Shown: positions 118-63,977, counted from the first letter of the stretch. The stretch: DNA of 64,000 nt from an uncultured Verrucomicrobiae bacterium (GCA_963702845.1 OY969763.1:2848001-2912000), one strand, 5' to 3'. The notes: generated from the sequence alone by a model not told the origin. Numbers and translations are program-made.

Positions 118-832
118 TCAGTTTGAAGCCTTCACCGCTGCGACATGCCAGTCGAAGAAAAGTTCGTTGCGTATGTTGCCGTGCGCGGGGGCAGGCGCCA
201 GATACGAGTAATAGCCGGCGATGGTGACGGCGTTCTGCTGGTCGCTATCCGTCATCGCCCAAGACGATGATGGGATGTAGATTTCGTGCAAGCGCTTTGG
301 GAGTTCGTCGGGCTTGGTATATGGTGGAGATGAGTACGGATAGCCGAACGGCCTGCTCACCACCTCGGTGTCCAGGTTGGTGACGGTTGACGCGGCTACA
401 TAGCTCAACGGCACGTGGATGGACGCCGGGTCGGGGTCCACAGACGGTTTCCATTTCAATGCTGCAGTCGGGCATCGGGAAAGCAAGTTGGTCCTCGCCG
501 TCGAAGCGGGCGCGGGCAGCCCCATGTAAGTGGCGATGTAATAGGAGAGCCGAAGCCGGTTCTGATTATCGGTACTCTTCATAAAAGCCCTGCCAGACCG
601 GACCGGGCAATTGATCCCCATGTTCATCCGCATAGAGTTGAAGCGCCAAGCCAACCTGTTTCAGATTGTTGATACATTTGGTTCGCCGCCCTTTTTCCTT
701 GGCCGCGGCTAAGACCGGCAGCAACAGGGCCGCCAGAATCGCGATGATGGCAATGACGACAAGGAGTTCAATTAACGTAAATGCGACAATACGGTGTCGC
801 CGCCCTGCCGCAAATTGTTGGAACTTCCGCAT
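118..832 (-). CDS. Prepilin-type N-terminal cleavage/methylation protein (DUF1559/SBP_bac_10-like), frameshifted near 570
   Basis: ORF 566-877 has [23 protein letters not shown]...CINNLKQ. ORF 118-654 carries the rest, ending [13 protein letters not shown] (H-X9-D motif). AGGAG precedes the ATG at 832. Paralog of 31641-32336 and 61777-62493. Confidence 0.85.
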
Positions 833-877
833 AGCTCTCCTATACAGACGTTGGCACGTTGCCAATTCGTCGCTCAA

Positions 878-909
878 TTATAGATGGCCGCCAAAGTCAA
901 AATGTGACA
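878..909 (-). promoter_or_regulatory. Putative ECF-type promoter (TGTCACATTT-N11-GCCATCTATA)
   Basis: Same motif and spacing as upstream of the extended ECF genes. 22/32 identities with the region upstream of 31242 by manual alignment. Confidence 0.5.
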
Positions 910-974
910 AAAAAAACTTTGGCCAATCTAGCAAAGGAGGGATCAATCCGAAAAGTTAACATGGACCGAGAAGA

Positions 975-24280: not shown

Positions 24281-25033
24281 CTACCGGTCCCACATCGCTC
24301 TGTCATCACCTCGCGGATACTGCCAGCCGAGCGAACTGGATTTCAGGGCTTTGGCGTGTCCATCTACGAATGCGCAATTCGCCAGTCCATTATGCCGATT
24401 AAAGACGCGCACCGGATTGCGATGCCATTGATCATTGCGCGCCGCAGGCGTCAAAAAAAGCCACACCCCATATCCTTCCCAGTAGTTTTCTCGATTAATA
24501 GAAGCAATCCAGAGATCCGCATTTGTCTCCTTTACGTTGTCGATATAGGCGGAATCCGCAAACATCACCGTCTCTGACGGTCTTCTGACCGACGACACTT
24601 TGACAAATGGACCCGTGGCCGGGTCGACGTTTTCCGGAAACACACCGAGTTCGTTGAAATTCATGCCGATGCCATAAAGGTTCGTCAACGTCACACCAGC
24701 TTGTGTTGGGAACACATCTGGACAGCTATAAAGCTTCGGACCGCCCTTGGTGTAAGGCCGCAATATATCCGGCCACCACAAATAATCTTGATACGGGATC
24801 AGCCGGTCGGACGGCAACGGATTCACCACGCACGCAATCGGAACAATAATATCCCGAAACTCCCCCGTGTAGAGCGTGCTCGCAATTCCGATCTGGTGCA
24901 TGTTGTTGAGACACGTTGTCGCCCGCGCCTTTTCTTTCGCGCGAGACAACACCGGCAAAAGGAGCGCCGCCAAAATCGCAATGATTGCGATCGCCACCAA
25001 CAGCTCGGTCAACGTGAATGCTTGTTGTCGCAC
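24281..25033 (-). CDS. Prepilin-type N-terminal cleavage/H-X9-DG protein (DUF1559-like)
   Basis: [38 protein letters not shown]. Starts 8 nt after the ECF stop. Confidence 0.9.
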
Positions 25034-25041
25034 GGAATATT

Positions 25042-26652
25042 CTATTCAACTGTCAGCCCAACCATAAAGGGAACACTAATTGTTTTATCCGAGACATAAT
25101 CGATCGTCGACAGCGTTAGGTTTGAATGGGGATTGATAAAAGTTGTCCGATACAACACCAGCGATTCGTCGGGCTGCATCCTTTTAATCATCGGGTTCAT
25201 TCCAACCCAGGCTGGTTCGGTCAACGAATCCGTTTTGAGATTCAATGAATTCACACCCGTCTTGAACAACGGAGCCCACCAGTCCCAAACGTTTACCCCA
25301 GGAACAATGCGTAGTTCACTTTTACTGCCATCAGAAAAATGAAGGACCAACTGCCCGATCGGCTGTCCAGCCATCTCGAACGAAATGAGTCCCGCGCCAT
25401 GAAGAATATGAATCTTGCTGCACTGTCGATCGATCCGGATGTCCTTCACCCTCGCTGGATAATCATTTCCCTTCTTATAATGATCAAGCCACCCGCCAGT
25501 AAGATATACAGCTCCCTCAACGTCAAATGGCACACCTCCGAAAATGTGCGTTCCAGTCGGTAACTGCGCCAAATTATCCGAATTATCGCCTTTGTCCCCC
25601 AACGGCCCGTCAGCCAACTTCGTGTTAACGTATGGCTTCAAATCAATCGTCACTGCATCCGTCGTGTCGTTGACTTGTTGCCTCGCCTTGATCTCTTCCT
25701 CCCTCGCCCGTTTTTCACCCGGCCAAACTTCCGCACGAAGTTTTAAGATTTCTGCTCGGTGCGGACTCTTTTTAAACACGCGGTTCATCGAATTATCGAG
25801 GACAGAACCGGGTATGGAAGCAAACCGCTGCCGAAGAGCCGCTTTTTCTGCAGCTTGCCGCTTCGCCGCCACGCTCTTCAAAATCACCGTTGCGGTCCCT
25901 GCCAATAACAAGACAACCGCCGCGCCGATTACCGTTTTCGTTTTTGACCAAGCCATGAATTTTATTGCTCCTTTTACGAGGGTTAAAGTCGAACTACTCA
26001 CGACGACCCCGTGGATCGCCGTGGTAGTTACCGTTCCTGCCAAGCCGATCGGCGCGGCCTGCACCGAGTTTCCCGAAATCGCAGCCACGAGGATGACTGA
26101 GGTAAGCGTGACTCCTTGTTTGCTGAAGAACCGTCGAAGTTTGTCGACCGCGCGCGTCGTTCGTTTGTGCGCTGCCCATTCGCCGATTCCCAAGACGCTG
26201 GCTGTTTCCGATGCCGATTTGTTCTCGAAAAACCGCATCGCCAAAATGGCGCGCTCATTAGAGGTCAGGTTTTCCATCGCTTGCTCTAGAAACGGCGCGA
26301 GTCGGGCCCATGCCTCCTCAGGGCCAAGTTCAGAATTCAACGTCTGCATAGCTGCATCTCGTTCTCGGATTTCCCGGCGAAGTCTCGACCTTAACAGTCT
26401 TTTCGAAGTAAACCGTGTCGTTTCATACAACCAACCCACGAGAACCGTACGCGGGCTCAATCGGTTCGCCTTGCGCGCCAGAATCAGGAAGACCACTTGC
26501 GCCACCTCCTCGGCGTCACGTGCATCACCGACGCGACGCAACGCCGCGGAATACACCATATTCAGATGGCGTTTAACCAGCTCGGCAAAAGCCGATTCCG
26601 AGCCATTATCGGCAAACTCTCGCAATAGCTCCATGTCATCTGGCTCGGCCAT
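25042..26652 (-). CDS. Extended ECF sigma factor 1 (sigma2/4, TM, jelly-roll/carbohydrate-binding-like domain)
   Basis: [30 protein letters not shown], sigma4, Ala-rich linker, TM, then [20 protein letters not shown]. Confidence 0.9.
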
Positions 26653-26743
26653 CTAAATAAGTAATCCCCGACCGCGGCGAAATTGGACATCTATTTTCAC
26701 AAATGTCTCCGCCACGACCGGGGATGATGCCCACCCGCACCTC

Positions 26744-28354
26744 CTACTTGAAATCCGCCGCTGAAAAATTCTGGTTCACCTGAATATTTTCCTGCGTTTG
26801 CGTGTAGATAAACTCACCCGACTTCATTGCTTTGGTCGTGTTCTTCATCATCGAATCCATTCTAGCGCGCACCTCCGCTATCGCCTCCGGAGTCACCGGT
26901 TTTTTTTGTACCCGAAGCATCTCGGAAAGGTCGGCATCGGATAGCTTTATTTCAGCCGAACTCATCGTAACGGAAGTTCGGGTGCGCCGGATCAAGTGGT
27001 CCTGTTTGCCAATCCAAAATGTGTTTTTAAGTTTCCCAACTCGCGAAGCCATTTTGCCTGCGAGACCAGCTTGTTTGGGAATTGCACTTGTATCCAACTC
27101 CATCGTGATCACGAAGCAATCCGCTTCGCCAACCTTCTCATCCTTTCCTTTTGTCTGACGCGAACTCCCACTCTTCGCGGAACTCAACATATTTCCCCAA
27201 CCCTGGTTGAAAAACACGGACGGTATCATCGAGGCCGCCAGCGACGACACGCCAGTCGCCGAACCAATTGCCAACTGCATATTCTGAAATTTCTGCACTT
27301 TCCCTTGCACGCCGCCCGCACCAGTCATCTGAAAATAGTCCCCCGTCCCGTCGTTCCAAGTCGCACCTGTGCTGGTAAACGCACCACCGGTTTGTGTCCA
27401 ATCGACGTGATACAATTGCGGGCGTTGCAACCGAATGTTGAATGCTGTTTCCGTGTTTGCACCACCCCCACTCACAAGGACCGTTCCGCTGCTGCTGTAA
27501 CTCGATAGCGCCGCATACGCGTCCATCGTGCCTTTCACGATTTGTTGCGCTGCCGCGTCGCTTCCATTCGCTGTTTTCGAAATCGCCACCGTCGCCACAC
27601 CGCCAATGAATAAAGCTGCTACGCCCACACCGATTGCTGTTTTCGCCTTTGACCATGCCATAAGTTTAAGTGCTCCTTTAACTAGGGTTATTGTTGAACT
27701 GCTGACGGCGGCCCCCTTGGCCGCCGTCGCAGTTACCGTTCCTGCCAAGCCAATCGGTGCTGCCTGCACCGAGTTGCCCGAAATCGCTGCTCCGATGATC
27801 GCGGTCGTAGAAACCACGCCACGCTTGCTAAATAATTTCCGCAGCTTCTCCAACGCGCGGGCAGTCCGTTTATGCGCCGCCTGCTCATTGATGTTCATCA
27901 ACGCCGCCGCTTGCGCCGCGCTTTTGTTTTCATAGAAACGCAAAGCCAACAGCGCCCGATCCTTTTCACCCAATCGCGACATCGCCGTTTCAAGATGTGG
28001 CGCAAGTTGAGGCCAAACACCTTCGTCGTCGGATTGGTTCAAGTGCGATTGCATATACGCTTCCTGTTCCCGCGATCGGCGGCGCGACTGTGCCCGCAAA
28101 AATCCGGCTGCGGTGAACCGCGTAGTTTCGTAAAACCAACCAGTTAACACAGTGCGATCGCCCAATTTGGCTGCTTTTTTTGCGAAGATAACGAAGACAG
28201 CTTGCGTGACGTCGTGGGCCTCGGCATCGCCGGTCAGACGCAACGCCACGGAATACACCAGATTGATGTGACGCCGAACCAGCTCAGAAAACGCTGGTTC
28301 TGATTCCTGGTGCACAAATTGCCCCATCAATTCCATGTCGCTGACATCCTGCAT
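26744..28354 (-). CDS. Extended ECF sigma factor 2 (C-terminal LolA-like/DUF2092-like domain)
   Basis: Same N-terminal architecture. The C-terminus has YAALSSYSSSG..IRLQRP..FWIGKQDHLIRR..VNQNFSAADF. Confidence 0.88.
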   Translation of the reverse strand: MQDVSDMELMGQFVHQESEPAFSELVRRHINLVYSVALRLTGDAEAHDVTQAVFVIFAKKAAKLGDRTVLTGWFYETTRFTAAGFLRAQSRRRSREQEAYMQSHLNQSDDEGVWPQLAPHLETAMSRLGEKDRALLALRFYENKSAAQAAALMNINEQAAHKRTARALEKLRKLFSKRGVVSTTAIIGAAISGNSVQAAPIGLAGTVTATAAKGAAVSSSTITLVKGALKLMAWSKAKTAIGVGVAALFIGGVATVAISKTANGSDAAAQQIVKGTMDAYAALSSYSSSGTVLVSGGGANTETAFNIRLQRPQLYHVDWTQTGGAFTSTGATWNDGTGDYFQMTGAGGVQGKVQKFQNMQLAIGSATGVSSLAASMIPSVFFNQGWGNMLSSAKSGSSRQTKGKDEKVGEADCFVITMELDTSAIPKQAGLAGKMASRVGKLKNTFWIGKQDHLIRRTRTSVTMSSAEIKLSDADLSEMLRVQKKPVTPEAIAEVRARMDSMMKNTTKAMKSGEFIYTQTQENIQVNQNFSAADFK

Positions 28355-28452
28355 CTACATAGTATTGGCCGGTCAGCGTTGGAACTGGACATTTTATTTG
28401 AACGCCCCAGCGGCGTCAGCCAACCTCAGGCAGCGAACGGCTAGGCCCAGGT

Positions 28453-29877
28453 TCACGCCTTCGGTCGAGAGAAGACGTCGTCGGCCACCGCCTCATTGCG
28501 TTTGACCTCGGTGAACTTAAGCGTCCAGTGTTCCGCTCCGCTCTGGCGCAAAACGAACGGCAATACTAACCCGTCAATCTCCCGATAATCCTCACCATCC
28601 ATTTGATACTGCTGAGCCCCGATTGCGTAATTGATCCGAACCAACAACCCTGTCTGCGTATCGAACCACAATTGCGGCGATTGGTCCTGTAACTTCACTT
28701 CAACAACATAGGCCGAACGTTTGCCGATCGGTTCCTTACCTTTGAGGCTGGCCTTCGGAAGCAGCGCGGCGAGAGAATCACCTCGATAAGCACCCAAAAT
28801 AATTCCCGTCACGAGCGCGTTAACCGGATCCAAATCAGGACCTCCCCATGGAGAGACTTCCCACCCAGCCACTCCATCGAACCCGCGACGGAAAACCGGG
28901 TTACCTCCCGCCTTGAGCACCTCAAGCCAACGATCTGGCGCCTTGACTATCGCCGCGGCGTCCAGCGTTCCTAACCCATCTCCACTTTCGAAAACGCCCT
29001 TCATCGTCAGCGTCGTCGTCTTGTCTGCGCCGGCCATCGGACCTTTGCTTTTCGTGTAGCGCGCAAAAATTTCGGCAACCGTTGGCGATGAAGAAACATT
29101 CTTCGAGACCACCGTTACCGTTCCTGCGGCAAGCAAAACTGCCACACTCGCGATGATACCGACTTTTACCTTTGACCATGCCATAAGTTTGATTGCTCCT
29201 TTTACGAGGGTTGATGTTGAACTGCCGATGGCCGCTCCTTTAGCCGCCGTCGCAGTAACCGTTCCTGCCAAGCCAATCGGCGCTGCCTGCACCGAATTAC
29301 CCGAAATTGCCGTCGCAATGATCGCCGTCGTCGAAACCACACCGCGTTTGCTGTAAAACTTGCGCAATTTATCCAAAGCCCGTGACACGCGTTTTTGCGC
29401 AGTATCCGGGTCAACGCCTAGAATGTTTCCAACTTCGTTGAGCGGTTTTTGCTGGTAGAACCGCAAAACGATTGCGCTACGATCACGCTCGTTGAGTTGG
29501 GCCACCGCTTCGTCGAGCAGCGGCGACATTTGCGCCCATGCTTTCGCATCGGGTTCATTCAAGAGCGATTGCATATACGCCTCCTGTTCGCGGTGCAGCC
29601 GTCGATATTCCGTCCTCCGGGTATTGCGCGCTACGAAATGCGCAGTGCGACAAAGCCAGCCGGCGAGCACCGTCGTATCACTCAGCTTCCCGGCTTTTTG
29701 AGCGAGGATTATAAAAACAGCCTGCGCGACTTCCTGGGCCTGCTCTGGATTCTGAACTTGTCGCAATGCGGCGGAATAGACGAGAGCGATATATCGCTCC
29801 ACCAGCATGGAAAAGGCTTCTTCCGATTGCCGGGAGGCGTAAGCAGACAATAATTCCGCGTCATCCAACTCGCTCAT
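28453..29877 (-). CDS. Extended ECF sigma factor 3 (C-terminal LolA-like domain)
   Basis: C-terminus has KAPDR..GFDG..LWFDTQTGLLVR..DYREIDGLVLPF..NEAVADDVF. Confidence 0.88.
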   Translation of the reverse strand: MSELDDAELLSAYASRQSEEAFSMLVERYIALVYSAALRQVQNPEQAQEVAQAVFIILAQKAGKLSDTTVLAGWLCRTAHFVARNTRRTEYRRLHREQEAYMQSLLNEPDAKAWAQMSPLLDEAVAQLNERDRSAIVLRFYQQKPLNEVGNILGVDPDTAQKRVSRALDKLRKFYSKRGVVSTTAIIATAISGNSVQAAPIGLAGTVTATAAKGAAIGSSTSTLVKGAIKLMAWSKVKVGIIASVAVLLAAGTVTVVSKNVSSSPTVAEIFARYTKSKGPMAGADKTTTLTMKGVFESGDGLGTLDAAAIVKAPDRWLEVLKAGGNPVFRRGFDGVAGWEVSPWGGPDLDPVNALVTGIILGAYRGDSLAALLPKASLKGKEPIGKRSAYVVEVKLQDQSPQLWFDTQTGLLVRINYAIGAQQYQMDGEDYREIDGLVLPFVLRQSGAEHWTLKFTEVKRNEAVADDVFSRPKA

Positions 29878-29940
29878 TACCTATAATTGTCTGCCCGCGA
29901 AAGAATCCGACAATTTAATTTGCGAGAAGCCTGGCGCAGG

Positions 29941-31242
29941 TCACTTCAATCGTGAGACATAGACAAACACCAGCAGGGTTTCCGGCGCGTCCCCCTCGAT
30001 TTTGCTGTTTAAAACAACCGTCTGCCCGGAAGCGACCGCCAAAGTCTGTTCTTTTATGTTGGTTACGCGAATCGAAGGCGACGGCCCATCCACCAAGTCC
30101 CGCAATTCAGCTTCAACCTTCAACGCAATCCTCGAATCCCGCTCAACTACAGGTGTCACACTCAGGGTGGTTCCGACAAACGCGTTTGTGCCGATGGCCT
30201 CGACCGTTTTCTGCATTGAACCCGTCGCTCCCATACCAGTGGCGGTGGTAATACCGGGCGCATCATATAAAGTGACACCCGGGTGTTTATTGATAAGCGC
30301 GCGAAATGCCTTCGTGCTGGGGTCGACAGGAATCACTGGCTTTGCGAACTCCTCGAGAATGGCGCTGACATTCCCGGTTGGAGTTCTGACGAACAAGCCT
30401 TTGATCAAGACCTGCGCTTTTTTGCCGGAATTATTTTTGCTACCGAAGGGGGTTGCCGTCCCTTTGTCAGACAGCGCTACTGTGGCCACGCCACCCGCCA
30501 ATAAAATTCCTGCGGCGATACCGAATGCCAATTTGAGTTTTGCGTAGGTCATAATCTTGAGCGTTCCTTTCACTAGGGTTGAGGTTGAACCGTTGATTGC
30601 TGCGCCACTGACAACAGATCCTGAAATTGTTTGGGCCAAAGAAATCGGGGCGGCCTGCACCGAATTACCCGAAATTGCCGTCGCAATAATTGCGGTCGTG
30701 GAAACCACACCGTGTTTGCTGAAATACCTGCGCAACTTTTCAAGGCTGCGATTGACACGCATCTTGGACGCATCCTCACTTGCGCCCATCGCTGCGCCGA
30801 CGTCCTTAAAATTCTTATCTTGATAGAACCGGAGCACGATTGCGTCTTGTTCCTTCTCGCCCAATCCGGCAATCGCGGTTTCAAGCAGCGGCGAGAGTTG
30901 AGCCCACGCGTCAATTTCTGGTTCATGGCTGCTAGATTGCATGTAAGCCTCCTGTTCGCGTGCAAGCCGGCGGCGCTGTTGTTTCAACGCGTCAGCCGAA
31001 GCAAATCGTGCGGTGCGACAAAGCCACCCGGGAAGAATCGTCTTACTGCTGAGCGAACCCGCCTTGCGCGCAAGAACGATGAACACCGCTTGTGTGACAT
31101 CCTGCGCCAGGTCTGCGTCCGTCACTTGTCGCAGTGCAACGGAATAGACGAGATTAACGTGCCGCGCGACGATCGAGGCAAAAGCCTCCTCGGAGCCCGT
31201 CTCCGCATACCTTCGCACCAAATCCATGTCGTCACTCGTCAT
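29941..31242 (-). CDS. Extended ECF sigma factor 4 (C-terminal secretin-like domain)
   Basis: C-terminus has [41 protein letters not shown]. Confidence 0.85.
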
Positions 31243-31316
31243 CTCGCCTATATATGGACGCCCAAGCAGAAAAGTAACTGACTATTTCGCAACCCTAACC
31301 CGCGAAGCCACTCCGA

Positions 31317-31425
31317 AGCCCCGTAGGGCGACATAATTATAGCCCAGGGTGAAAGCGCGGCCTTGAGGGCCCACGCGAAGCGTCCTCGTAATAACTTGTT
31401 CTGATGTGCGCCGCAACCCTGGGTA
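31317..31425. repeat. REP-like palindromic element
   Basis: AGCCCCGTAGGGCG..ATAGCCCAGGGT...AACCCTGGGT. Confidence 0.5.
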
Positions 31426-31562
31426 AACCGCCTCAATCGCAGATTCACTTTGCCGAAGGCGCGACGAAGGAGTTAAAAACCCATCTTCAGCAAGTGCCGC
31501 CAAACCTGCGCACCCCCAAAAAACCTGTTTGGATATCAATTGCTAGGCCACACTACACGCCC

Positions 31563-31640
31563 GTGCATTCCAAGCTAAGTATCTTGGCGCTGTGCCTGCT
31601 GATCGCAGGTTGTTCGTCCGTCGACTCTAAAACGACCTGA
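31563..31640 (+). pseudogene. Truncated lipoprotein (signal peptide only)
   Basis: GTG-HSKLSILALCLLIAGCSSVDSKTT*; the stop abuts the prepilin stop. Confidence 0.45.
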
Positions 31641-32336
31641 TCATTGTGGCGTCGCGGCTACGTGTGAATCGAAATAGAGTTGATTGCGAACGTTCCCGTG
31701 GGCCGGATTGATCGGCTGATACCAAAAATATTGCGCCGCGGGAAAACCGTTTTGCTGGTCCACATCCGTAAGCGCCCATGACAGGGCCGGATTGTAGATT
31801 TCGCGCAAACGTTTCGGAGCCTCATCCGCGTTCGTAAACGGCGGGGTCTGCGAATGGGGGTAGCCAAACGGTCGGGTCACAACACCTGAATTAATATTGG
31901 TGACAACAGGATTGGCCATGTAGCTCAACGGCATGGTCAACGCCATCAAGGGCGTTCCAGGATCAGCCGAAAACCAATGCCGCGCCGCCGAAGGACATCT
32001 GGCCAGGAGCATGTTCTGCGGAGTGGATCGAGGTGCCGGCAGTCCCATGTAGGTCGCGATGTAATACGGCAGCCGGGTGGCATCCTGATTGTCGTAATTC
32101 TCATAAAACCCCAACCAGACCGGCCCCGGCAATCGATCGTCGTGCTCGCTGGCGTACAATTGGAACGCAACGGCAATTTGTTTCAAATTATTGCCACATT
32201 GCGTGCGACACGTCTTTTCTTTCGCCCGGGCCAAAACTGGCAGCAGAAGCGCGGCAAGGATCGCAATCACACCAATGACGATCATCAACTCGACCAGCGT
32301 AAACGCGCTCTCACTTTTTTTCATCGTGGGCCTCAT
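31641..32336 (-). CDS. Prepilin-type protein (DUF1559-like, H-X9-DS variant)
   Basis: AFTLVELMIVIGVIAIL, CGNNLKQ, HGNVRNQLYFDSH. Confidence 0.9.
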   Translation of the reverse strand: MRPTMKKSESAFTLVELMIVIGVIAILAALLLPVLARAKEKTCRTQCGNNLKQIAVAFQLYASEHDDRLPGPVWLGFYENYDNQDATRLPYYIATYMGLPAPRSTPQNMLLARCPSAARHWFSADPGTPLMALTMPLSYMANPVVTNINSGVVTRPFGYPHSQTPPFTNADEAPKRLREIYNPALSWALTDVDQQNGFPAAQYFWYQPINPAHGNVRNQLYFDSHVAATPQ

Positions 32337-32359
32337 CGTGTAAAGGAAGTTTTTCAAAT

Positions 32360-33901
32360 TTACTTTACACGCGCAAAAGTCATCGAGATGACTCGCTCGC
32401 CCTGCCGCCATTTGCCGATAATTTGGGTGTCATCCTTGTTCAATGTGCCTTGAAACGCACCGTTCCGCGGTCCAAAGGGAGCAAGCTTTACAGTGGTTCC
32501 TTCATAAGTCACCAGCGTCGACTGGCGAAAGTACCCTCCCTCGACACAATAAAAGTCGGCGCGAAACTTTCCGGCAGACGGCTCGGCAATATTTACATTG
32601 AAGTGCAATACACCTTTGCCGGCTTTTATCTCACCCGTCCAGGAACTCTGCAAATCCGAACCGGCCCTTCCGGCAAATTCGCTTTTAGCCAGAGATGGAA
32701 ATCTTGCATACGTCTCCCCGAAGTGTTCTTCGTCGATTACACTGCGCCAATTTCCATCCATGTTGGTCATGGTAATGATCTCGTAACCATCTTGTGGCAA
32801 ACCGTCAAAGCGCAATTCGAGTGATACCTGGCCATCTGGAAGAACGGCCTTCTTCTCGATACGCATAGCGCTGATAGGCTTTATAGTTTCAACGAGGATC
32901 TGCGACCTGTCCTGATCAGTCTTCGTGTTTCTAAAAAGCAAACCTCCGAATTCTCGCGCCAGTTCAGGTGTTAAAGCGGCAAAAAAGGCTTCCGAATTGC
33001 CGGTGCTCTTGGCCCAGATAGACGATTCAATGGCGGCTTCGGGCGTGGCATATCCCCTGAAAGCCCACGAGCCTCTTGGAAGAACCGCCACCGGTTTATG
33101 CCAGTCAAAAAAGTGTCCTTTGTAGACTTCTGTCCCACCTGCCGCAGCAAGCAGGACTCCCGCACCGGCGATGACCGCAAATTTCATTTTCGTCCATGCC
33201 ATAAGTTTCAACGATCCTTTGACCAGACCCACCGTTGACCCCGGGGCTGCGGCTCCCTTCGCCAGCGCCGTCGCCATAACGGAAGCTGTCAACGCCGCGG
33301 GTGCCGCTTTCGCGGCGTTAGCCGAGAGGACAATCCCGATCACCGCAGTGGTCGTAGTGACATCACGTTTCAGGAAATGCCGCCGTAATTTTTCGAGCGC
33401 TCGATGCACCCGACTCTGCGCCGCCGCTGGGGAAATATTCAGCGCTGCTGCCACATCGGGCAGATTTTTTTCTCCGAAAAAGCGAAGCACCACAGCGTCG
33501 CGATCTTTTTTTGCCAACCTCGACATCGCGTCATCAAGGAGTGGTGCGAGTTGCTCCCAAACTGAAGCGTCCGTCGTCGACTGCAGGGTGGATTGCATAT
33601 AAGCCTCTTGTTCGCGGTTTTGACGTCTCCGCTCCCCGCGCAGAAAACTTAACGACGTCAGCCGGGTCGTTTCGTAGAGCCAGCTTTCCAAAACGATGTC
33701 CTTGCGCAAAGTCGATGCTTTGTGCGTCAGAATAAGAAAGACCGCCTGCGTGATCTCTTCAGCATGCGCGGCAATTCCAACGTGTCGCATGGCCGCAGAA
33801 TGGACGAGCCCGATATGCCGCCGGACCAACTCGGCAAACGCTTCCTCCGACCCGTGTCGGCTATAATCCTGGATCAGTTCAATGTCGTTCACATCGCCCA
33901 T
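32360..33901 (-). CDS. Extended ECF sigma factor 5 (two extracytoplasmic domains)
   Basis: Same N-terminus and TM, a GYATPEAAIES domain, then a small beta domain (WTGEI..FQGTLN..GKWRQG). Confidence 0.88.
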   Translation of the reverse strand: MGDVNDIELIQDYSRHGSEEAFAELVRRHIGLVHSAAMRHVGIAAHAEEITQAVFLILTHKASTLRKDIVLESWLYETTRLTSLSFLRGERRRQNREQEAYMQSTLQSTTDASVWEQLAPLLDDAMSRLAKKDRDAVVLRFFGEKNLPDVAAALNISPAAAQSRVHRALEKLRRHFLKRDVTTTTAVIGIVLSANAAKAAPAALTASVMATALAKGAAAPGSTVGLVKGSLKLMAWTKMKFAVIAGAGVLLAAAGGTEVYKGHFFDWHKPVAVLPRGSWAFRGYATPEAAIESSIWAKSTGNSEAFFAALTPELAREFGGLLFRNTKTDQDRSQILVETIKPISAMRIEKKAVLPDGQVSLELRFDGLPQDGYEIITMTNMDGNWRSVIDEEHFGETYARFPSLAKSEFAGRAGSDLQSSWTGEIKAGKGVLHFNVNIAEPSAGKFRADFYCVEGGYFRQSTLVTYEGTTVKLAPFGPRNGAFQGTLNKDDTQIIGKWRQGERVISMTFARVK

Positions 33902-34215
33902 CTATCTGTTTATGGCCGTGGAAATGCAAAATCAGGCAATTCTTTTTAACTTTTTTACGGCGAGAGTGACGATCGCATTTCCAGTTTCCAGTGTCGGTTC
34001 TCACTATTTATTACAAACCAGCAATAAACTCCCCCTTCAAGGGCGAGGACTACTTAAACCAATTCGGCTCGGACCTTTCCGCAATGCCGTCTTGCTTCCC
34101 TCAACTCTCAACCAAACCGTCCGAGAGCGCGCAACGCAGAAAAGTGACTGACTATTTTACAGAAAAACCGTCAAACACCTACACCGCAACCACTTCCTCC
34201 AAAAACAAAAAATTC

Positions 34216-37595: not shown

Positions 37596-38983
37596 ATGAA
37601 CCCAATCGATTCTTTTTTAATAGCGCCGAAAATTGTACCGCCGCTCGATCCGGCTTTCCGACCCGCCGCTCTCGCAACGCGCGCGTTCGCGAAAGCGGCG
37701 CAAGGTGCCGGCGCTGTTCCCGTGCAAATCGCACTCGAACAAGGCGATGGCTCGGTGACGCACTACCGGACAGAAGTTCTACCACCGTCACACAAAGATG
37801 CTGCCGCGAATTTCACACACATTGAGCGCCTCGTGAAATTTCTCCTCTGGTCGCGCGGAGGCTTTCGAGTTCATTTCGTCGGCCCGACCGATTTGGGCAA
37901 GCGGCTTCAGAATCATTTCGTTACAACCGCCACGGGCAAATTCGACGCCAACATCATGGGTGAGAGAATTTATGAAAAGCCCTTCGAAGTGGTCCTCTCC
38001 CCTGCTCTGCCGACGGAACGCAGTCGCACCAGCGCTCTCGGTCGCCACACCGACGTCTATCGCATTGGCTTTGATCTCGGCGCGAGCGATCGCAAAGCCG
38101 CCGCCGTTATCGACGGCAAAGTCGTCTTCAGCGAGGAATGCCTCTGGAATCCGGTTCAACAAACCGACCCCGAATGGCACTTCAACGAGATCATGGATTC
38201 GCTCAAACGCGCTGCCGCACACCTGCCGCGCGTTGACGCCATCGGTGGCAGTTCAGCCGGCGTGTATGTAAACAACCGCGTCATGGTCGCCTCCTTGTTC
38301 CGCGGCGTCCCGACCGATGTTTTCAATTCCAAGTCAAAGACCTGTTCCTCCGCATCAAAAAAGCCTGGAACAACATCCCATTCGAAATCGTCAACGATGG
38401 CGAAGTCACGGCGTTGGCCGGATCCATGTCACTCAACGAAAACGCCGTGCTCGGCGTAGCCATGGGCTCCAGCGAAGCCGCAGGATTCGTCACACCCGAA
38501 GGCCGCATCACAACGTGGTTGAACGAACTGGCATTCGTGCCAGTCGATTACAATCCCCATGCCCCCGCCGATGAATGGTCCGGCGACCGCGGTGTCGGCG
38601 CCCAGTATTTTTCCCAACAATGCGTCGGGCGCCTCATCCCTGTCGCCGGAATTGAGGTCGATTCAAAAGATGGTCTGCCGGAAAAACTAAAACACGTGCA
38701 AGCGTTGATGGACAAAGACGACGAACGCGCACGTAAAATTTACGAAACCATCGGTATCTACCTCGGCTACGGCACTGCACATTACGCGAGCTTCTATGCC
38801 TGCAAACACGTGCTGGTATTAGGCCGCGTCACCACGGGCATCGGCGGAACGATCATCGTCGACAACGCGAGGCGTGTGCTCCGTGAAGAATTTCCGGAGC
38901 TCGACATCCAGTTCCACGTGCCGGACGAAAAAGAAAAACGTCACGGCCAGGCCATCGCCGCCGCCAGTTTGCCGAAGGTATGA
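37596..38983 (+). CDS. ROK-family sugar kinase-like protein, frameshifted near 38335
   Basis: GFDLGASDRK, NDGEV, GSSEAAG, NELAF. Confidence 0.85.
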
Positions 38984-38992
38984 TTCCTTCGC

Positions 38993-41900: not shown

Positions 41901-42889
41901 ACGCCGAGAGCCCACAGCAGTCCGATGAAAAGGACCGTCTTCCATTCCGTCAAAAGTGACTGCGTCTTGATAATCAACCACGCCAATGCGGCGGCTGATG
42001 AAATACCGACCAGGTTGAAAATGTTGAACACCATGTTGTGCTTGCCGGCCATGTCTTTGAAAGCACCCGGGTCGATGATCAAACCCGCCAACCAGCACAA
42101 ACAGTTGATCACCAGCAAATCGCGCCCGACCTTCGGGTTTGCCGCGATGATTGCGATTTCCAAGCCCATCGCAGCTACAATCAGCGTCTGGTGGTTCGTG
42201 ATGCAAATCCCGAACAGGAACGCCGCCCAATATATATAGCGACGCTGATGCGGCGCATACATCCAACGCAACAGACAAGCCAACACGCCCAGAAGTGACA
42301 AGACGCTGAACGGATACACTTCCACGATGACCGCCTGGCTCCACATGAAGCCGTTGTAAGCGAGTAACATTGCCGAAACAAAACCAGCAACGACGCAAAT
42401 GGCGTTTTCCGAACGACGTTCAATGCCCTTCAGTTCCGCGATGCTCTCAATAATCATGCTGCTGCCGCGCGATGTGAGCAGAGCGAGCAAACCGCACGCG
42501 AGCGACGCGGCCACAGCCGATGCCACACTCACGCGCCAGGCGATGTTAGAGAACGGGAGAATCTTGGTGAAAATCCACGTGAACACGGTCCAAACCGGAT
42601 ATCCAGGAGGGTGTGGCACGCCGGCATACATCGAGCCGACGGCGAGTTCACCTGAATCTTCCAAGGTGAGGTCCGGCGACAGTGTCAGCATGTAACCGAC
42701 GAAAATCACCAGTGTAGTGATACCGAACGTGAGCCAGTCGACGCGCCGGTAGAGCGGCGGTGTCTTTGCTGGTTGGGCCACGGTTGTCTTGCTGGAGGCA
42801 GCGCCCGCCGACTGAGTCGTAGCGTTCGAAGCGTTGCCTTTTCGTGGTGGCGTCGGTTGTTGAGGTGAAGCTGGAGTCTCGGGATTCAT
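38993..42889 (-). CDS. DUF2723/TMEM260-like GT-C membrane glycosyltransferase with C-terminal TPRs; frameshifts near 39845 and 39030
   Basis: EDSGEL..GVPHPPGYP, AVIVEVY, NHQT, many TM segments, TPR motifs. The likely true end is LRSSPEFQRIMK* at 38993. Confidence 0.85.
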
Positions 42890-42892
42890 CGT

Positions 42893-43339
42893 TTAAGGGT
42901 AAATTCCATTTATGGAGTTGGACGCGGGTCGCAACTCGTGTTGTGCAGAGCTAAAATTTGTTGTTCGCCATGTGGCATGGGGCCAAACGTTCCATTCTAT
43001 GTTTTCGTCGGCCTTGCTCAATGCAAATGTTTGGGAAGAAATGTTCGACGACGAGGCGTCGACCATGAGCGTGGCAAAAAAAGTCGCGTTATCGCGGGAG
43101 GGATATGGCAGAGGGCGTCGGGAATTGCCGCTGCAAAGCACTACCACGGTAAGGCAGCACGCCGCCACCGGCGTCAACCAATTCCAAAGCTCGATGCCGC
43201 GCCAATGATGCGGCGCGTCGGTTTGGGCGCGCGGTTTAGCCGCAGCACCGCCCTCGAACAATACTCTCGAAATTTTATCCGAGGGCTGGCGAGGATTCCA
43301 GGATTGCAACCGTTTCTCCAAAATATCCGGATTGCTCAT
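42893..43339 (-). CDS. Putative anti-sigma factor (single TM)
   Basis: LEKRLQSWNPRQPS N-terminus plus a TM segment; overlaps the 3' end of the ECF gene. Confidence 0.65.
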   Translation of the reverse strand: MSNPDILEKRLQSWNPRQPSDKISRVLFEGGAAAKPRAQTDAPHHWRGIELWNWLTPVAACCLTVVVLCSGNSRRPLPYPSRDNATFFATLMVDASSSNISSQTFALSKADENIEWNVWPHATWRTTNFSSAQHELRPASNSINGIYP

Positions 43340-43820
43340 AATCAATTCCTTTCAAACGAACTTTCAATTTACTGATGCCGTAGCGATAACGGCCTGCCAC
43401 GGTGTTCGGCGATGCTTCCAGCACTTCGCCGATTTCCTCAAAAGTGAATCCGTGCCAAATCTTCAGAACGATGACCTCGCGCTGTTCCGCTGGAAGCTTT
43501 TCCAAGCAGCGCATCGCCGCCATCTCCGCGTCGGTCGTTTCACTTGAAACATCAAACCACCGTTTCGATTCCACCTCGCGCGCAAACCTCCGCCACAAAG
43601 TTCGGCGATAATTCACCGCCCGATTGCGAAACGCACGCAGACAATAGCGCTCGGGCTGTTCCGGTTCGCGGGGTAAATTTAGCAGCGCCAGGAATGTCTC
43701 TTGTAGGACGTCCTCGGCCTCACTGTGACTCAGCCCCAGCGCCCTGCCGTAGAGCAGCAGACCGGCCGCTTTACTTTCGTAAAGCTCCTTGCACCAGCAG
43801 TTAAGCTCTGAGTTGTTCAC
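43275..43820 (-). CDS. Canonical short ECF sigma factor
   Basis: AEDVLQETF, LPAEQREVIVLKIW..TFEEIG..NTVAGRYRY. Confidence 0.92.
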   Translation of the reverse strand: MNNSELNCWCKELYESKAAGLLLYGRALGLSHSEAEDVLQETFLALLNLPREPEQPERYCLRAFRNRAVNYRRTLWRRFAREVESKRWFDVSSETTDAEMAAMRCLEKLPAEQREVIVLKIWHGFTFEEIGEVLEASPNTVAGRYRYGISKLKVRLKGIDYEQSGYFGETVAILESSPALG

Positions 43821-54231: not shown

Positions 54232-54309
54232 ACAACTTTCCCGCCCTAGCGGCGGCCTCCAGTGAGTCGTTATTGCAATCAAACGCGCGAAGCATAAACT
54301 TCGCGCGTT

Positions 54310-61776: not shown

Positions 61777-62493
61777 CTAATCAGATCGCACCGTCGCGAC
61801 GTGCCAGTCGAAGAAAAGTTCGTTGCGCACGGTTTTATGAGCGGGGCCTGCCGGCAGGAAGTCAAAATAATAGGCGGCTGGCTTTCCATTTTCCTGATCC
61901 ACATCTGTCAACGCCCAGGACAGGGACGGATTGTAGATATCGCCGATATGTTTCGGCGGCTCGTTGGTCCCTGTATTATATGGCGGCTTGGTGTAGGGGT
62001 ATCCGAACGGACGGCTAACCGTGCCCGAAGTCACATTGGTGATTTCGAGAGCGGCCATGTAACTCAGCGGCACATAATTGGACATCAGGGGCGTGTCTGC
62101 CGAAACCGACTTCCAATGCTGGGCAGCCGATGGGCAGCGCGCGAGCGGAGCGTCGTGAGGTGTCACCGATGGCGCGGGTAATCCCATGTATGGGGCAAGG
62201 TAATATGGCAGACGCGTAAAATCAAGGTTGTCGTACTCTGCATAGAGGCCGAGCCAGGCCGGGCCGGGCAATTGATTAGCGTGATCGCCGGCGTATAATT
62301 CGATGGCGATGCCCAGTTGCTTCAAATTATTGACACATTGCGTCCGAGCACTTCTTTCCTTGGCCACGGATAATGCGGGCAGCAAGAGCGCCGCCAGAAT
62401 CGCGATGATGCCGATCACGACCAGCAGTTCCACGAGTGTAAAGGCTGGGGTTTGTTTCCCGGTCAATAAGATCTTGGGTTTGGTGATAAACAT
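61777..62493 (-). CDS. Prepilin-type protein (DUF1559-like, H-X9-DW variant)
   Basis: [39 protein letters not shown]; starts 8 nt after the ECF stop. Confidence 0.9.
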
Positions 62494-62501
62494 ATTTCTC
62501 C

Positions 62502-63977
62502 TCATTTCATTAGTCCCGACCGGCCAACCGTCATCGCTATGATCAACGCCGCGGATTGGTTTTTGCAAGAAAACCAATCCATGCTCGTAACTGTTACGGA
62601 CGGATTGGGATTGGCGATCGCGGTCAGACAGAAACGCACCGGCCGGTTTTGCCCGCGGGTGCGGGTCCCACCCACCCAGACCGCTTTGGAATTGGAGCCG
62701 GTTGGATCATTCATCGTCTTGGATTTCGGTCCAGTCGGAGTGTTTGCTTTTTTACCAGATCTGGCGGCCCACTCGACGATTTCCGAGCCGTAAAGCAATT
62801 GATTCGTCGCCGTCGATCCGTCGTCATAATGAAAGACGACCTGACAAACGGGCGTGTTATCGGGCGAGGGGAAGAAAGCGCTATTATACACGTAGAGCGT
62901 CTCAAACTTCTGGTTCACGTCGATGCCAAGGGCCTTTTCTGGAAAAACCGCACCACCTGCGGCATTCATAGCTCCCCAAAGAAAAATCGTTCCATCGATC
63001 TGGAGCGGCACATGCTCGAAAACTTGAAACCCCACGGGAGCAACCGCCACGGGAGCATTCCCCGAAACAGGATACTGCGTTATCGTATCAAAAAAGGAAA
63101 CCGGCTCAGAGTAGTGGGCCGTTAGATCAATCGGCGTGGCAGTATGATTTGCAATGGCGCGTTTGCCGGCAGCGAGTGCGATGCTGTGTTGGATTGGTTC
63201 TCGCAAGACGACCACTGTGGCAATGGACGCTGTCAGCAAAGCGCATGCGCCCGCTACAAGCCCGGTCTTGGTTTTTGTCCACGCCATAATCTTTAGTGCT
63301 CCTTTGATGAAAATTGAGATCGATGCTGCGGAGTGCGCCGCGGACAAGGCGGCGGACGTGGCGGATGCGGCCAGGCCCGTGGGGGCGGCGTGCGCGGAAA
63401 GTGCAAAGAGAGGCGCGCCAGCGGTGAGAGACGGTGTCGCGAAACCACGGCTGCGGAAGAATTGGGTCAGTTGATCCAAAGAACGGCTGACCCGTTTGCG
63501 CGCGGCATCTTCGCCCACGCCAAGGGCCGAACCGACTTCCCGGAAAGTCTGGCCTTCCATGAAATGCATGATGACGGCCGAACGGTCGGGATCGCGCAAT
63601 CGCAATAGCGCTTCATCCAGCATCGGCACCAGTGCCGACCAGACGGAATCGCCTTCCGCGCCAGCTAATTCCTGGCTGACTGCAACTTGTTCGCGATTGC
63701 GGCGGCGTAATTCGGAACGCAGCCAGTCACGGGATTTGTTCAGTGTCGTTTGATGGAGCCAGCCGGCGATGGTTGGATGGGAACGCAATTTGCCGGAGGA
63801 TTGCGCCAACGCGACAAAAACGTTTTGGGTGATTTCTTCAGCGGCGCTCCGATCGCCAACCTGTCGGAAAGCGGTGCCGAATACCAAATTAACGTGATGG
63901 CGCACCAGCGCGGCAAAGGCCTCTTCGCTGCGCCGGGCGTCGAATTCTGCGATCCATTGTTTGTCCTGTTCCGACAT
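62502..63977 (-). CDS. Extended ECF sigma factor 6 (same C-terminal domain family as ECF1)
   Basis: [15 protein letters not shown], sigma4, linker, TM, then PIDL..VPLQIDG..FHYDDGS..ANPNP. Confidence 0.9.

Follow-up and report, generated by a model that had tools for sequence, protein, structure and literature searches.

Membrane-tethered ECF sigma factor genes of a Verrucomicrobiae bacterium with a putative internal start for an exported, sigma-less product

We analyzed a 64,000-nt stretch of DNA from an uncultured Verrucomicrobiae bacterium (GCA_963702845.1 OY969763.1:2848001-2912000; hereafter, the window), which carries six genes for ECF sigma factors fused to a membrane helix and an outer domain. 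Each of these genes likely encodes, judging from its sequence, a second product that is exported and lacks the sigma region, given that a Shine-Dalgarno (SD) block is conserved at the DNA level inside the gene, that a local AT bias is lost together with the internal Met, and that sigma-less genes starting at the same ATG exist.

Results

Architecture and distribution of the genes

The six ORFs listed in an earlier note on this DNA were all recovered on the minus strand (Table 1). The array that the note described as five tandem genes is real; however, it is not contiguous, ECF5 and ECF4 being separated by a prepilin-like gene (31641-32411). Pfam matches to both sigma2 and sigma4, as claimed, and none to sigma3 were obtained for all six products, which is the composition of a group-4 ECF factor, and TIGR02937 scored above its cut-off in all six. 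The top matches of the predicted structure model were SigE, SigW, AlgU and further ECF structures, and over their N-terminal 265 aa the products share 36-56% identity with ECF2. The Ala/Thr linker and the KG-x-x-K-x-M motif were likewise found in six of six. Each product has a single strong hydrophobic stretch at aa ~240-258 (Kyte-Doolittle 19-mer, 1.71-2.42), in agreement with the one TM segment reported; lesser peaks (1.3-1.6) occur in the Ala-rich linker of ECF1, ECF5 and ECF6 and at aa 355 of ECF3. Architecture and helix both support membrane tethering, and the absence of anti-sigma genes between the array members was also reproduced. Across 232 family genes, the net charge falls from +2.9 ahead of the helix to +0.3 behind it, consistent with an N-in/C-out topology. 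The C-terminal domains likely lie outside the cytoplasm, as had been proposed, given that stand-alone homologues have a signal peptide or a lipobox, or are located behind kinase membrane helices.

Table 1. Positions of genes and sequence elements in the window
Feature	Position	Strand	Description
ECF1	25042..26652	-	sigma2-sigma4, linker, TM, ~190-aa outer domain in common with ECF6
ECF2	26744..28354	-	sigma, linker, TM, LolA/RseB-fold outer domain
ECF3	28453..29877	-	sigma, linker, TM, unnamed 212-aa outer domain
ECF4	29941..31242	-	sigma, linker, TM, secretin-like outer domain
ECF5	32360..33901	-	sigma, linker, TM, two small outer domains
ECF6	62502..63977	-	sigma, linker, TM, ECF1-type outer domain
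ECF1 membrane helix / signal segment	25879..25935	-	aa 240-258
ECF2 membrane helix / signal segment	27581..27637	-	
ECF3 membrane helix / signal segment	29107..29163	-	
ECF4 membrane helix / signal segment	30472..30528	-	
ECF5 membrane helix / signal segment	33125..33181	-	
ECF6 membrane helix / signal segment	63204..63260	-	
ECF1 internal site	25954..25974	-	SD-like AAAGGAG, 11 nt, in-frame ATG (Met233); predicted short product 304 aa
ECF2 internal site	27659..27679	-	SD + ATG (Met232); predicted short product 305 aa
ECF3 internal site	29182..29202	-	SD + ATG (Met232); predicted short product 243 aa
ECF4 internal site	30550..30570	-	AAAGGA + ATG (Met231); predicted short product 203 aa
ECF5 internal site	33200..33220	-	AAAGGA + ATG (Met234); predicted short product 280 aa
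ECF6 internal site	63285..63305	-	SD + ATG (Met231); predicted short product 261 aa
ECF1 family promoter	26660..26698	-	A-tract, TGTC-n3-TTT, GCGG-n-CAT; score 24.6
ECF2 family promoter	28362..28400	-	score 20.2
ECF3 family promoter	29883..29921	-	score 27.2
ECF4 family promoter	31250..31288	-	score 25.3
ECF5 family promoter	33909..33947	-	score 23.9
ECF6 family promoter			extends beyond window end (window position 64030, genome coordinates)
Prepilin-like gene	24281..25033	-	N_methyl + DUF1559; begins 9 nt past ECF1 stop
Prepilin-like gene behind ECF5	31641..32411	-	true start probably Met near 32330
Prepilin-like gene behind ECF6	61777..62577	-	57% identical to the one behind ECF5
Stand-alone prepilin-like gene	118..918	-	frameshifted in this assembly

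The source genome holds 20 such genes, and our family set comprises 232 genes from 99 assemblies; since these are related to each other, the counts given below are not independent. The named closest loci (n = 76) are mostly titled Verrucomicrobia, Limisphaerales or Pedosphaera, with no Planctomycetes among them. We also fetched a second set of distant, ECF57-type genes, about 28% identical, in such a way that all third positions were left free. This set has Cys at the two columns of the ECF57 Cys pair in 52/55 and 50/55 genes, and in the tree the Verrucomicrobia-type genes form one clade (support 0.63) beside it.

A probable internal start ahead of the membrane helix

The KGxxKxM block was originally read as a protein motif of a simple one-component sensor. 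This reading had to be revised, as the block appears to be mainly an internal start at the DNA level, so that these are likely two-product genes. The Gly at position -5 is encoded by GGA in all 15 own-genome paralogs having Gly (20 examined), while genome GGA use is 17%. Across 84 assemblies, GGA was found in 155 of 162 family genes, whereas its share at nine further conserved Gly columns is 6-49%; in the sigma region, synonymous identity has nearly reached saturation (0.41-0.44). In the distant set the residues are E-G-V, yet the DNA again reads AAGGAG 11 nt ahead of the same ATG, with GGA in 100/106 genes (background 13.8%), GAA in 96/106 (41%) and GTC in only 3/106 (41%).

The ATG itself shows features of a translation start. 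Of 232 family genes, 219 have a Met no more than 16 aa ahead of the helix, compared with 29 of 77 control single-helix proteins. GC3 drops from 0.70 to 0.26 in the 156 genes with both Gly and Met and to 0.39 in the 63 genes with Met only, whereas it stays at 0.70 in nine genes that lost the Met and are dispersed over the tree. A drop of more than 0.15 was seen in 197/219 Met-bearing genes and in 1/9 Met-less genes, and no GC3 dip was seen in the control single-helix proteins. Compared with synonymous resamples, folding of the mRNA at the site is weaker by ~3 kcal/mol (60 of the 156 and 63 of the 63 genes tested), an effect absent in the nine Met-less genes. Duplexes with the anti-SD had a median value of -9.5 at the internal ATG, compared with -4.4 for the sigma start and -3.8 for random Mets. 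In addition, sigma-less genes that start at the internal ATG were found (G000 4565340 and L094), and many ECF2-type database proteins start with the same segment, some with a lipobox. Taken together, these sequence-level signals make translation from the internal ATG quite probable.

Several observations fit this less well. AGGAG and ATG are 11 nt apart, whereas the spacing of start-like sites in this genome is most often 5-8 nt (nine sites at 11 nt vs 21 at 5 nt). A strong SD precedes only about 15% of the signal-peptide gene starts of the genome, and 63 of the 219 genes with a Met do not belong to the Gly-Met (SD) group. Where Met is replaced, there was no preference for GTG or TTG (one GTG among 11). 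The signal segment of the 156 genes contains a strict A-x-A in 16 and a lipobox in one. We found no report in the literature of an internal start in this sigma family.

One could return to the single-product receptor of the earlier note, in which the motif would be kept for helix packing or as a cleavage site and no short form would be made. Architecture, topology and domain swapping agree with this, the nine genes without Met retain open frames, and AlphaFold models one continuous low-confidence helix (pLDDT 54-63) through the motif and the adjoining membrane segment, so that a protein-level constraint is also possible. Given that synonymous positions are fixed in both gene sets, that amino acids vary between clades while the DNA stays constant, and that the AT bias is gone where the Met is gone, we regard a single product as improbable. 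The block might instead be another RNA signal, such as an SD-like elongation pause before the helix, an RNase site or a CsrA-like GGA site; the spacing is long for this genome, and the block is unstructured and AU-rich. This would explain poorly why the AT bias is centred on the ATG and runs downstream, as at true N-termini, why it disappears with the Met and why genes start at this ATG. As csrA was also not found in this 89.8% complete genome, we give this alternative little credence.

Exchange of outer domains through the linker

The six window genes bear five kinds of outer domains. That of ECF2 is LolA-like, as noted previously (AlphaFold pLDDT 91.7; VIA Z 15.1, rmsd 2.9, 171 aligned to 4mxt; Foldseek E about 1e-7 to LolA), and also matches RseB (VIA Z 12.4), with an open beta half-barrel and a helical lid. 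The secretin-like assignment of ECF4 is supported by Pfam PF00263 (28.8 bits vs a cut-off of 27.5). ECF1 and ECF6, for which the earlier note suggested a jelly-roll-like fold, have one domain in common by sequence comparison, with no Pfam match and no PDB sequence match. The LolA-like fold suggested for ECF3 was not confirmed, as its domain gave an hhalign probability of 0.2 against the ECF2 profile (sequence profiles only) and falls in unnamed Atlas clusters, plus one with DUF620 in 12% of members. ECF5 has two parts, each with its own homologues. Elsewhere in the family we found HlyD adaptors, a fucosidase-like domain, propellers and DUF1559, and outer domains of the family also occur on Ser/Thr kinases and BlaR1-type proteins; 220 outer domains formed at least 74 sequence clusters.

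The proposed modular swapping of these domains was borne out, as sigma and outer-domain relationships disagree and crossovers lie in the linker. The nearest sigma to ECF4 (75%) bears an ECF2-type domain and the nearest to ECF6 (80%) a DUF3738-cluster domain, and sequence identity in the swapped pairs stops at the helix. Linker DNA of ECF1-4 is 67-87% identical, including a 35-nt identical run, compared with a mean of 51% and a maximum of 67% in pairs with a gene outside the six; despite their similar linkers, the ECF1-4 sigma domains are not sisters in the tree. These comparisons support the idea that new head/tail pairings arise by linker recombination, visible in tandem ECF1-4. Domain swapping itself has already been published for Planctomycete ECFs (PMC7671368).

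Such recombination tracts, together with the published fusion origin of Planctomycete extensions (in the available text of PMC7671368), might suggest that the conserved block survives from an ancient fusion, or is a recombination hotspot kept uniform by gene conversion, and that it now has no part in translation. We consider this very improbable, because synonymous identity of the block is equal within and between genomes (0.57 and 0.56) and AAGGAG persists across clades at 28% protein identity, for which selection is needed.

A common promoter motif and prepilin-like genes

A two-block promoter motif was found in 198 of the 208 upstream regions of relatives on which our model was trained. It sits 36-37 nt ahead of the sigma ATG, implying a near-leaderless transcript. 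The model recovered 18 of 20 own-genome family genes at scores >17. As all paralogs have the same motif, their many inputs seem to converge on a single common regulon rather than to form separate circuits. The family promoter could be read by one other sigma factor.

The suggested link to prepilin-like genes was supported: they lie directly behind 38/194 family genes vs 12/1500 background ORFs, and some have a family promoter. The four best non-family promoter matches are each ahead of prepilin-like genes or operons, and 8/51 prepilin genes in relatives' loci scored >20 (0/255 shuffles). The stand-alone prepilin-like gene of the window, 54-56% identical to those behind ECF5 and ECF6, has its own family promoter (880-918, score 28.5) and is a predicted regulon member. 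Within this genome, the promoter lies within 420 nt of only 3/63 prepilin-like genes.

Discussion

We propose, at slightly better than even confidence in the whole, that these genes specify a tethered sigma receptor together with a free, sigma-less exported copy that would bind the receptor's ligand and damp its signal. The proposed receptor is an ECF sigma joined through the conserved linker and one helix to a predicted extracytoplasmic domain; this architecture, the family size and the exchange of domains are all observed. The internal SD, the unstructured AT-rich region and the ATG just ahead of the helix would provide the second start, and the helix would double as signal or anchor of the short product. 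It is fairly probable that the family promoter is read by these sigmas themselves and gives a near-leaderless long-form mRNA without an SD, in which case the short form would be more abundant. Linker aa 180-240 may fold back onto the sigma core as a cis anti-sigma. The predicted linker-sigma binding score was 0.54 vs 0.01 for the best control (own alignment), a mark reached by 116/157 solved complexes and 2/215 mismatches, although at ≤0.60 it was reached by only 18 of the 157 complexes and by both mismatches. At least 93% of contacts agreed between runs (partner pLDDT ≥71), and the models lend weak support to such binding. A cue at the outer domain would trigger trimming, followed by RseP-type cleavage that frees the sigma; by analogy to IutY, proteolytic release is somewhat probable, and an RseP-like M50 protease gene is present in the genome. 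The freed sigma would switch on all paralogs, through their common promoter, and a subset of prepilin-like DUF1559 genes. The induced short form would then handle or sequester the ligand, giving negative feedback. Similar logic operates in sigmaV-RsiV of Bacillus subtilis, where the induced membrane sensor also sequesters its ligand; RsiV is an anti-sigma with a gene of its own, for which neither a fusion nor a second start is known.

The short form may also act as a partner or protector that pairs with the long form by way of the helix or the outer domain, in an RseB-like manner, rather than as a sink; in a variant, the long form would monitor the export and folding of its own cargo, and the short form would be a functional envelope protein. 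All internal-start evidence applies equally here. The RseB/MucB and LolA fold of the ECF2 domain (VIA Z 12.4-15.1), the HlyD, fucosidase-like, propeller and DUF1559 domains and the retention of sigma-less derivatives as genes fit such a role, and the HlyD adaptor and fucosidase-like domains in particular resemble working proteins rather than decoys. However, one common pairing mode is unlikely for so many domain clusters, the presence of the same domains on Ser/Thr kinases and BlaR1-type proteins fits ligand sensing, and no RND pump gene was found in ~350 nt behind two HlyD fusions. Thus, we consider this alternative unlikely and prefer the damping copy.

The window genes are relatives of ECF57 but, by its defining Cys pair, not members. 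According to the supplement of Casas-Pastor et al. (PMC7826278), ECF57 occurs only in Planctomycetes and has one Cys each in sigma2 and sigma4; the available text describes a TM-bearing C-terminal extension (about two helices on average), variable domains and a target promoter that is 'not conserved' (PMC7826278). The window genes also have an extension, with one strong helix, weak linker peaks and, family-wide, 74 domain clusters. In contrast, they have Ala and Arg/His at the Cys-pair columns (6/6), Verrucomicrobia as nearest named relatives and a conserved promoter motif. Their linker aligns as homologous with that of the Cys-pair set we fetched, and the linker, internal AAGGAG-11-ATG and helix are common to both. 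ECF57 and the duplicated Planctomycete ECFs are likewise multi-copy with a membrane-spanning C-extension and unrelated outer domains; incongruent sigma and extension trees are described for the latter (available text of PMC7671368), and membrane release is proposed. There, only sigma2-sigma4 is said to be duplicated and inserted by chance (PMC7671368), whereas the mobile unit here includes promoter, linker, internal start and signal segment. The supplement of PMC7826278 and the available text of PMC7671368 say nothing of an internal start.

IutY of Pseudomonas putida (ECF243) is likewise a single membrane-spanning polypeptide that unites sigma and regulator. It is released by Prc and RseP and offers the best model for long-form action (available text of PMC5411451, which does not mention an internal start). 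It differs in its cell-surface-signalling anti-sigma domain, which works with a TonB-dependent receptor (PMC5411451); a FecR domain gave no Pfam match in 76 outer-domain representatives, including all six window genes. ECF48, ECF52 and ECF53 (e.g., SCO4117) are similar in having sigma, TM helices, an extracytoplasmic domain and expected proteolytic activation, but come from actinobacteria and contain an anti-sigma domain of the zinc-finger (ZAS) type (available text of PMC8999054). The family sigma region has no conserved Cys (at most 33/235 at any column), and the linker consensus has neither Cys nor His, so that a ZAS zinc finger is not seen. As in SpaO-L/S and CheA-L/S, where translation from a second in-frame start yields a C-terminal product that has a role of its own, the family sequences contain an internal start codon that is in frame and whose own initiation signals are under selection. 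Those pairs are cytoplasmic, as far as the available text of PMC13515050 describes, whereas in the present genes the second start would uncover a signal segment, and the short product would reach the envelope free of the transcription factor.

More tentatively, and at less than even confidence, the ECF57-like fusions of Verrucomicrobia and Planctomycetes may be one-gene, two-protein cassettes, in which a portable unit, made up of its own promoter, the sigma, a cis anti-sigma linker, an internal ribosome site and a signal segment, captures any exported protein through recombination, and ~20 receptors feed one regulon. One gene would then make a membrane receptor and the free counterpart of its domain. 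If this is true, a captured exported protein becomes a membrane receptor and an inducible free copy simultaneously, and the shared regulon of about 20 receptors per genome would include the unexplained DUF1559 prepilin-like genes.

Architecture and distribution of the array

The array is real. The six ORFs described in the earlier note, ECF1 to ECF6, are present at the positions listed in the table, and each of them contains Pfam matches to sigma2 and sigma4 and none to sigma3, followed by the Ala/Thr-rich linker, the KG-x-x-K-x-M motif and one strong hydrophobic segment at about aa 240-258, in agreement with the single membrane helix that had been described. Read along the minus strand, the array runs ECF5, a prepilin-like gene, ECF4, ECF3, ECF2, ECF1 and another prepilin-like gene; ECF6, together with a third gene of the prepilin-like kind, sits 29 kb from the rest of the array. 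Anti-sigma genes had been reported as missing, and indeed we found none among the array genes.

We found 20 family genes, that is, relatives of ECF1-6, in the organism's own genome (G000). Family matches at E <= 1e-40 were present in 25 of the 31 related genomes searched, and matches at E <= 1e-45 in at least 7 of 121 genomes of a phylum-wide sample, with up to 21 candidates scored per genome. The nearest named loci mostly bear the titles Verrucomicrobia, Limisphaerales or Pedosphaera. Six records (L032, L033, L059, L065, L067 and L073) are titled 'uncultured Bifidobacteriaceae' or 'Bifidobacterium', yet bear Verrucomicrobia-type family genes, which suggests that they are mislabelled. A tandem layout is common, given that 32 of 194 family genes directly precede another family gene. 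A plasmid tblastn search for Planctomycete relatives returned no match. For the analyses below, 12 partial matches and 3 duplicates were removed from 250 sequences, together with 3 more that lacked a usable helix region, leaving 232; one truncated row was also excluded from alignment A2. The table includes three genes in the window, rpoD among them, that are split over frames, which suggests indel errors in the assembly.

Positions of the genes and sites discussed in the text
Feature	Position	Strand	Observation
ECF1-ECF5	window 24281..33901	-	Sigma fusion genes; range includes two prepilin-like genes
ECF6	window 62502..63977	-	Sigma fusion gene
Prepilin-like gene with family promoter	window 118-832	-	Frameshift mid-gene
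Family promoter	window 880-918		Upstream of a prepilin-like gene
TMEM260-like/TPR gene	window 38853-42889	-	Split over overlapping frames
ECF sigma factor	window 43275-43820	-	Short, soluble; no kinship to the array
rpoD (primary sigma factor)	window 52426-54374	+	Split over two frames, r1.1/r1.2 and r2-r4
Phospholipase C-like gene	window 54931-59087	+	Split over overlapping frames
Family gene	G000 C1:2650363-2651575	+	Sigma part out of frame; internal SD and ATG intact
Family gene	L100:6056-7395	+	Sigma part out of frame; internal SD and ATG intact; part of sigma4 and linker missing
Long ECF	G000 C1:3938878-3940539		Hydrophobic C-terminal part; other lineage; without KGxxKxM
Long ECF	G000 C1:4741029-4742654		Hydrophobic C-terminal part; other lineage; without KGxxKxM
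Promoter match	G000 C1:4192386	-	Fifth-best non-family match (25.1); upstream of a small membrane protein gene, not prepilin-like
Sigma-less gene	G000 C1:4565340-4566162	+	Opens with the family signal segment, directly behind a family gene; intergenic DNA retains a decayed copy of the upstream signal

Outer domains

The post-helix parts of 220 complete genes fell into 74 sequence clusters. Pfam named few of 76 outer-domain representatives (DUF3738, RCC1, TPR, HEAT, secretin-like, CarboxypepD_reg, fucosidase-like and others); it agreed with the earlier description of the ECF4 domain as secretin-like. The ECF2 domain, previously called LolA-like, was predicted with a confident fold (pLDDT 91.7) that matches the LolA/RseB fold (VIA Z 15.1, rmsd 2.9, 171 aligned). 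PDB sequence searches with the ECF1 and ECF2 outer domains gave nothing significant, and Pfam scans of their domain alignments were uninformative. The domain shared by ECF1 and ECF6 has 4085 homologues at E <= 0.001, some of which reside on Ser/Thr kinases and BlaR1-type proteins, and no sequence match gave its fold a name. An Atlas search with the outer part of ECF5 gave leads (SnoaL/DUF4440) that were all under 0.9; neither this part nor the ECF3 outer domain received an assignment. Because stand-alone homologues of the outer domains bear signal peptides, lipoboxes or membrane helices, and because the charge bias across the helix is N-in/C-out, the outer domains are likely to be extracytoplasmic.

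A probable internal start in the linker motif

Codon choice in the KG-x-x-K-x-M motif was strongly biased. Of 20 family genes examined in the own genome, 15 have Gly at position -5 relative to the conserved Met, and all 15 encode it by GGA (genome use 17%); the Lys at -6 is AAA in 14 of 14. Across the 232 genes, which come from 99 assemblies, GGA encodes this Gly in 155 of 162 cases, and its use in nine other Gly columns is 6-49%. These codons spell AAAGGA(G), which is complementary to the 16S tail of the own genome, 11 nt upstream of an in-frame ATG; the residues that follow are Lys-rich and then hydrophobic, resembling a signal peptide. Four controls support the idea that the motif is a DNA signal for internal initiation, so that a sigma-less short form would be made in addition to the long form, the whole sigma fusion.

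A Met occurs at this place in 219 of the 232 family genes, as compared with 29 of 77 other single-helix proteins of the genome. From the 13 rows scored as Met-less, four were set aside, three having a Met just inside the helix window and one being cut short by part of a transposase. Within six codons of the Met, GC3 drops from 0.70 to 0.26 in the 156 Gly-Met genes and to 0.39 in the 63 genes outside this group, and remains at 0.70 in the nine genes without the Met; the drop exceeds 0.15 in 197 of 219 Met-bearing genes versus one of nine Met-less genes, and the 77 control proteins show no dip. In both Met groups (60 of the 156 and all 63 genes tested), folding of the mRNA in this region is weaker than in synonymous resamples by about 3 kcal/mol, an effect absent from Met-less genes. 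The median anti-SD energy is -9.5 at the internal ATG versus -4.4 at the sigma start, which seldom has an SD upstream (AGGA/GGAG at -11 in 3 of 227).

We also scanned metagenomes with a degenerate motif, every third position being left free. The 120 matches included 14 duplicates, and 94 of the 106 unique sequences match the family profile. As the pattern demanded the Met, this distant set tests codon choice only. At 28% protein identity, it has the residues E-G-V in place of K-G-A, encoded by GAA in 96 of 106 (background 41%), GGA in 100 of 106 (13.8%) and GTC in 3 of 106 (41%), which places AAGGAG at the same distance from the ATG as in window-type genes. Gene conversion was considered as the sole cause of the block and rejected, since the block is equally alike between genomes (0.56) and within them (0.57).

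Many ECF2-type database proteins have the family signal segment at their start, and some of them bear a lipobox; these were seen as proteins, outside their gene context. Most sigma-less ECF2-type loci are plain signal-peptide, lipoprotein, zinc-ribbon or kinase genes, or contig-end fragments, so that only two genes verified in DNA start at the internal ATG, one in the own genome (G000 4565340) and one in L094. The sigma part is out of frame in two family genes, one in the own genome and one in L100; thus, only the short form could be made from them. The frameshift in the former may be a sequencing error.

Three observations speak against initiation: the 11-nt gap is wider than the 5-8 nt at which start-like sites of the own genome peak, 63 genes lie outside the Gly-Met (SD) group, and the Met column shows no bias to GTG/TTG. 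According to PMC13009471, suboptimal SD spacing lowers initiation modestly if no rival start is nearby.

Other signals were also tried and rejected. For an internal sigma-70 promoter, ECF1 offered one weak match, with 2 nt between the -10 box and the ATG, and totals resembled those of shuffles (8 vs 6.6). No internal site scored above 17 as a copy of the family promoter, no conserved heptamer marked a slippery frameshift site, and the second Arg of a Tat signal at the sigma4 end was not conserved.

Exchange of outer domains

Traced along the sigma tree, the outer-domain label switches 110 times (minimum 62, shuffled mean 131); the ECF2-type and the ECF1-type domains are each scattered (8/8 and 6/6 separate, respectively). 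The nearest sigma to that of ECF4 (75%) bears an ECF2-type domain, and identity stops at the helix. The earlier note's reading of the sensors as interchangeable, which congruent sigma and sensor phylogenies without swapping would have refuted, therefore passed this test. Incongruent trees of this sort had been published before for Planctomycete ECFs (PMC7671368).

DNA identity among ECF1-4 is 67-87% in the first linker block, versus a mean of 51% (maximum 67%) in pairs that include a gene other than the six, and ECF3 and ECF4 share an identical run of 35 nt in the linker. The sigma domains of ECF1-4 are not sisters on the tree. This combination suggests that outer domains are exchanged through recombination in the linker. 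Other rearranged forms were also seen: in the family gene of L145 the tail is swapped for a DDE transposase fragment straight after the linker motif, and in the database proteins P0003 and P0008 a partial sigma2 is joined straight to the linker, sigma4 being deleted and the outer domain retained.

Family promoter and prepilin-like genes

The family promoter, found upstream of the sigma ATG, has two blocks: an A-tract with TGTC-n3-TTT, then GCGG-n-CAT. The TGT sits 36-37 nt upstream of the ATG in 132 of 198 cases, which implies a predicted leader of 0-5 nt. A model trained without the own genome recovered 18 of its 20 family genes at a score above 17, and the scan gave 26 sites above 20 versus 3 in reversed sequence. 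The best four non-family sites all lie upstream of prepilin-like genes or operons; the gene behind the one in the window shares 54-56% identity with the prepilin-like genes that follow ECF5 and ECF6. In addition, a prepilin-like gene stands directly behind 38 of 194 family genes versus 12 of 1500 background ORFs, and in the relatives' loci 8 of 51 prepilin-like genes bear the motif themselves versus 0 of 255 shuffles. The link to prepilin-like genes suggested earlier was thus supported. Only 3 of the 63 prepilin-like genes of the own genome have the motif within 420 nt, so the regulon would be a subset. Given that ECFs usually autoregulate, the family sigmas probably read this promoter, and the one motif common to all paralogs implies that they may cross-activate.

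Comparison with known systems

By definition (PMC7826278), ECF57 is confined to Planctomycetes, carries a Cys pair and about two TM helices, and lacks a conserved promoter. The distant set appears to behave as ECF57, judging from its Cys pair (52/55 and 50/55) and its WD40, CarboxypepD and ankyrin tails. In contrast, the window genes have Ala and Arg/His at the Cys-pair columns and form a separate clade beside the distant set (support 0.63). None of ten passages naming Verrucomicrobia in the supplement of PMC7826278 describes this architecture, nor does ECF262. We infer that the window genes are kin of ECF57, may work like IutY and belong to neither. Among the papers listed by full-text searches, none on an internal start in these genes was found, and Planctomycete ECF-group papers may bear on novelty.

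Some ECF57-type sigmas have unusual extensions. L253 and L257 carry DUF1559, the domain of the family-linked prepilin-like genes, inside the extension, and L269 and L280 are fused to an HlyD/CusB membrane-fusion domain, with no pump gene within about 350 nt downstream.

Proposed mechanism and significance

AlphaFold predicted the sigma core and linker helices 184-194 and 203-212 confidently, and one low-confidence helix spanning the motif and the membrane segment. Two-chain prediction of linker 180-240 with sigma 1-177 scored 0.54 (best control 0.01). Of 157 solved complexes, 116 attained this mark, as did 2 of 215 mismatches, but only 18 of the 157 complexes did so with a score of 0.60 or under, as against both mismatches. 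Contacts agreed in at least 93% between runs, with partner pLDDT of at least 71 (custom alignment). This two-chain result hints that the linker may bind the sigma part.

In the most likely mechanism, the long form is a membrane-tethered sigma factor. The own genome has an M50 protease gene, and a cue at the outer domain might trigger RseP-type cleavage, by analogy to IutY (PMC5411451, PMC8999054). Once freed, the sigma would increase transcription of every paralog and of the prepilin subset. The short form has the stronger ribosome site; it would build up in the envelope and weaken the signal by binding the same ligand, a logic that can be likened to that of sigmaV-RsiV. Alternatively, the short form might be a protector or the true working protein instead of a damper, which would suit the HlyD, fucosidase-like and DUF1559 tails.

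Of the new features, those with the best support are an internal start that two clades conserve, a family promoter with prepilin-like targets, and recombination in the linker. ECF57-type sigmas rank with the most expanded regulators in PVC bacteria. PMC7671368, on their evolution, leaves open whether extended sigmas function and whether their extensions regulate anything; with the conserved internal start, the defined promoter and the candidate targets, both questions could be addressed with two point mutations and a reporter. These same features provide a first handle on how the abundant DUF1559 prepilin-like genes are regulated. If the proposal is true, a single gene would yield a trans-envelope receptor as well as a free copy of its outer domain, a sigma-factor design that we have not found described.
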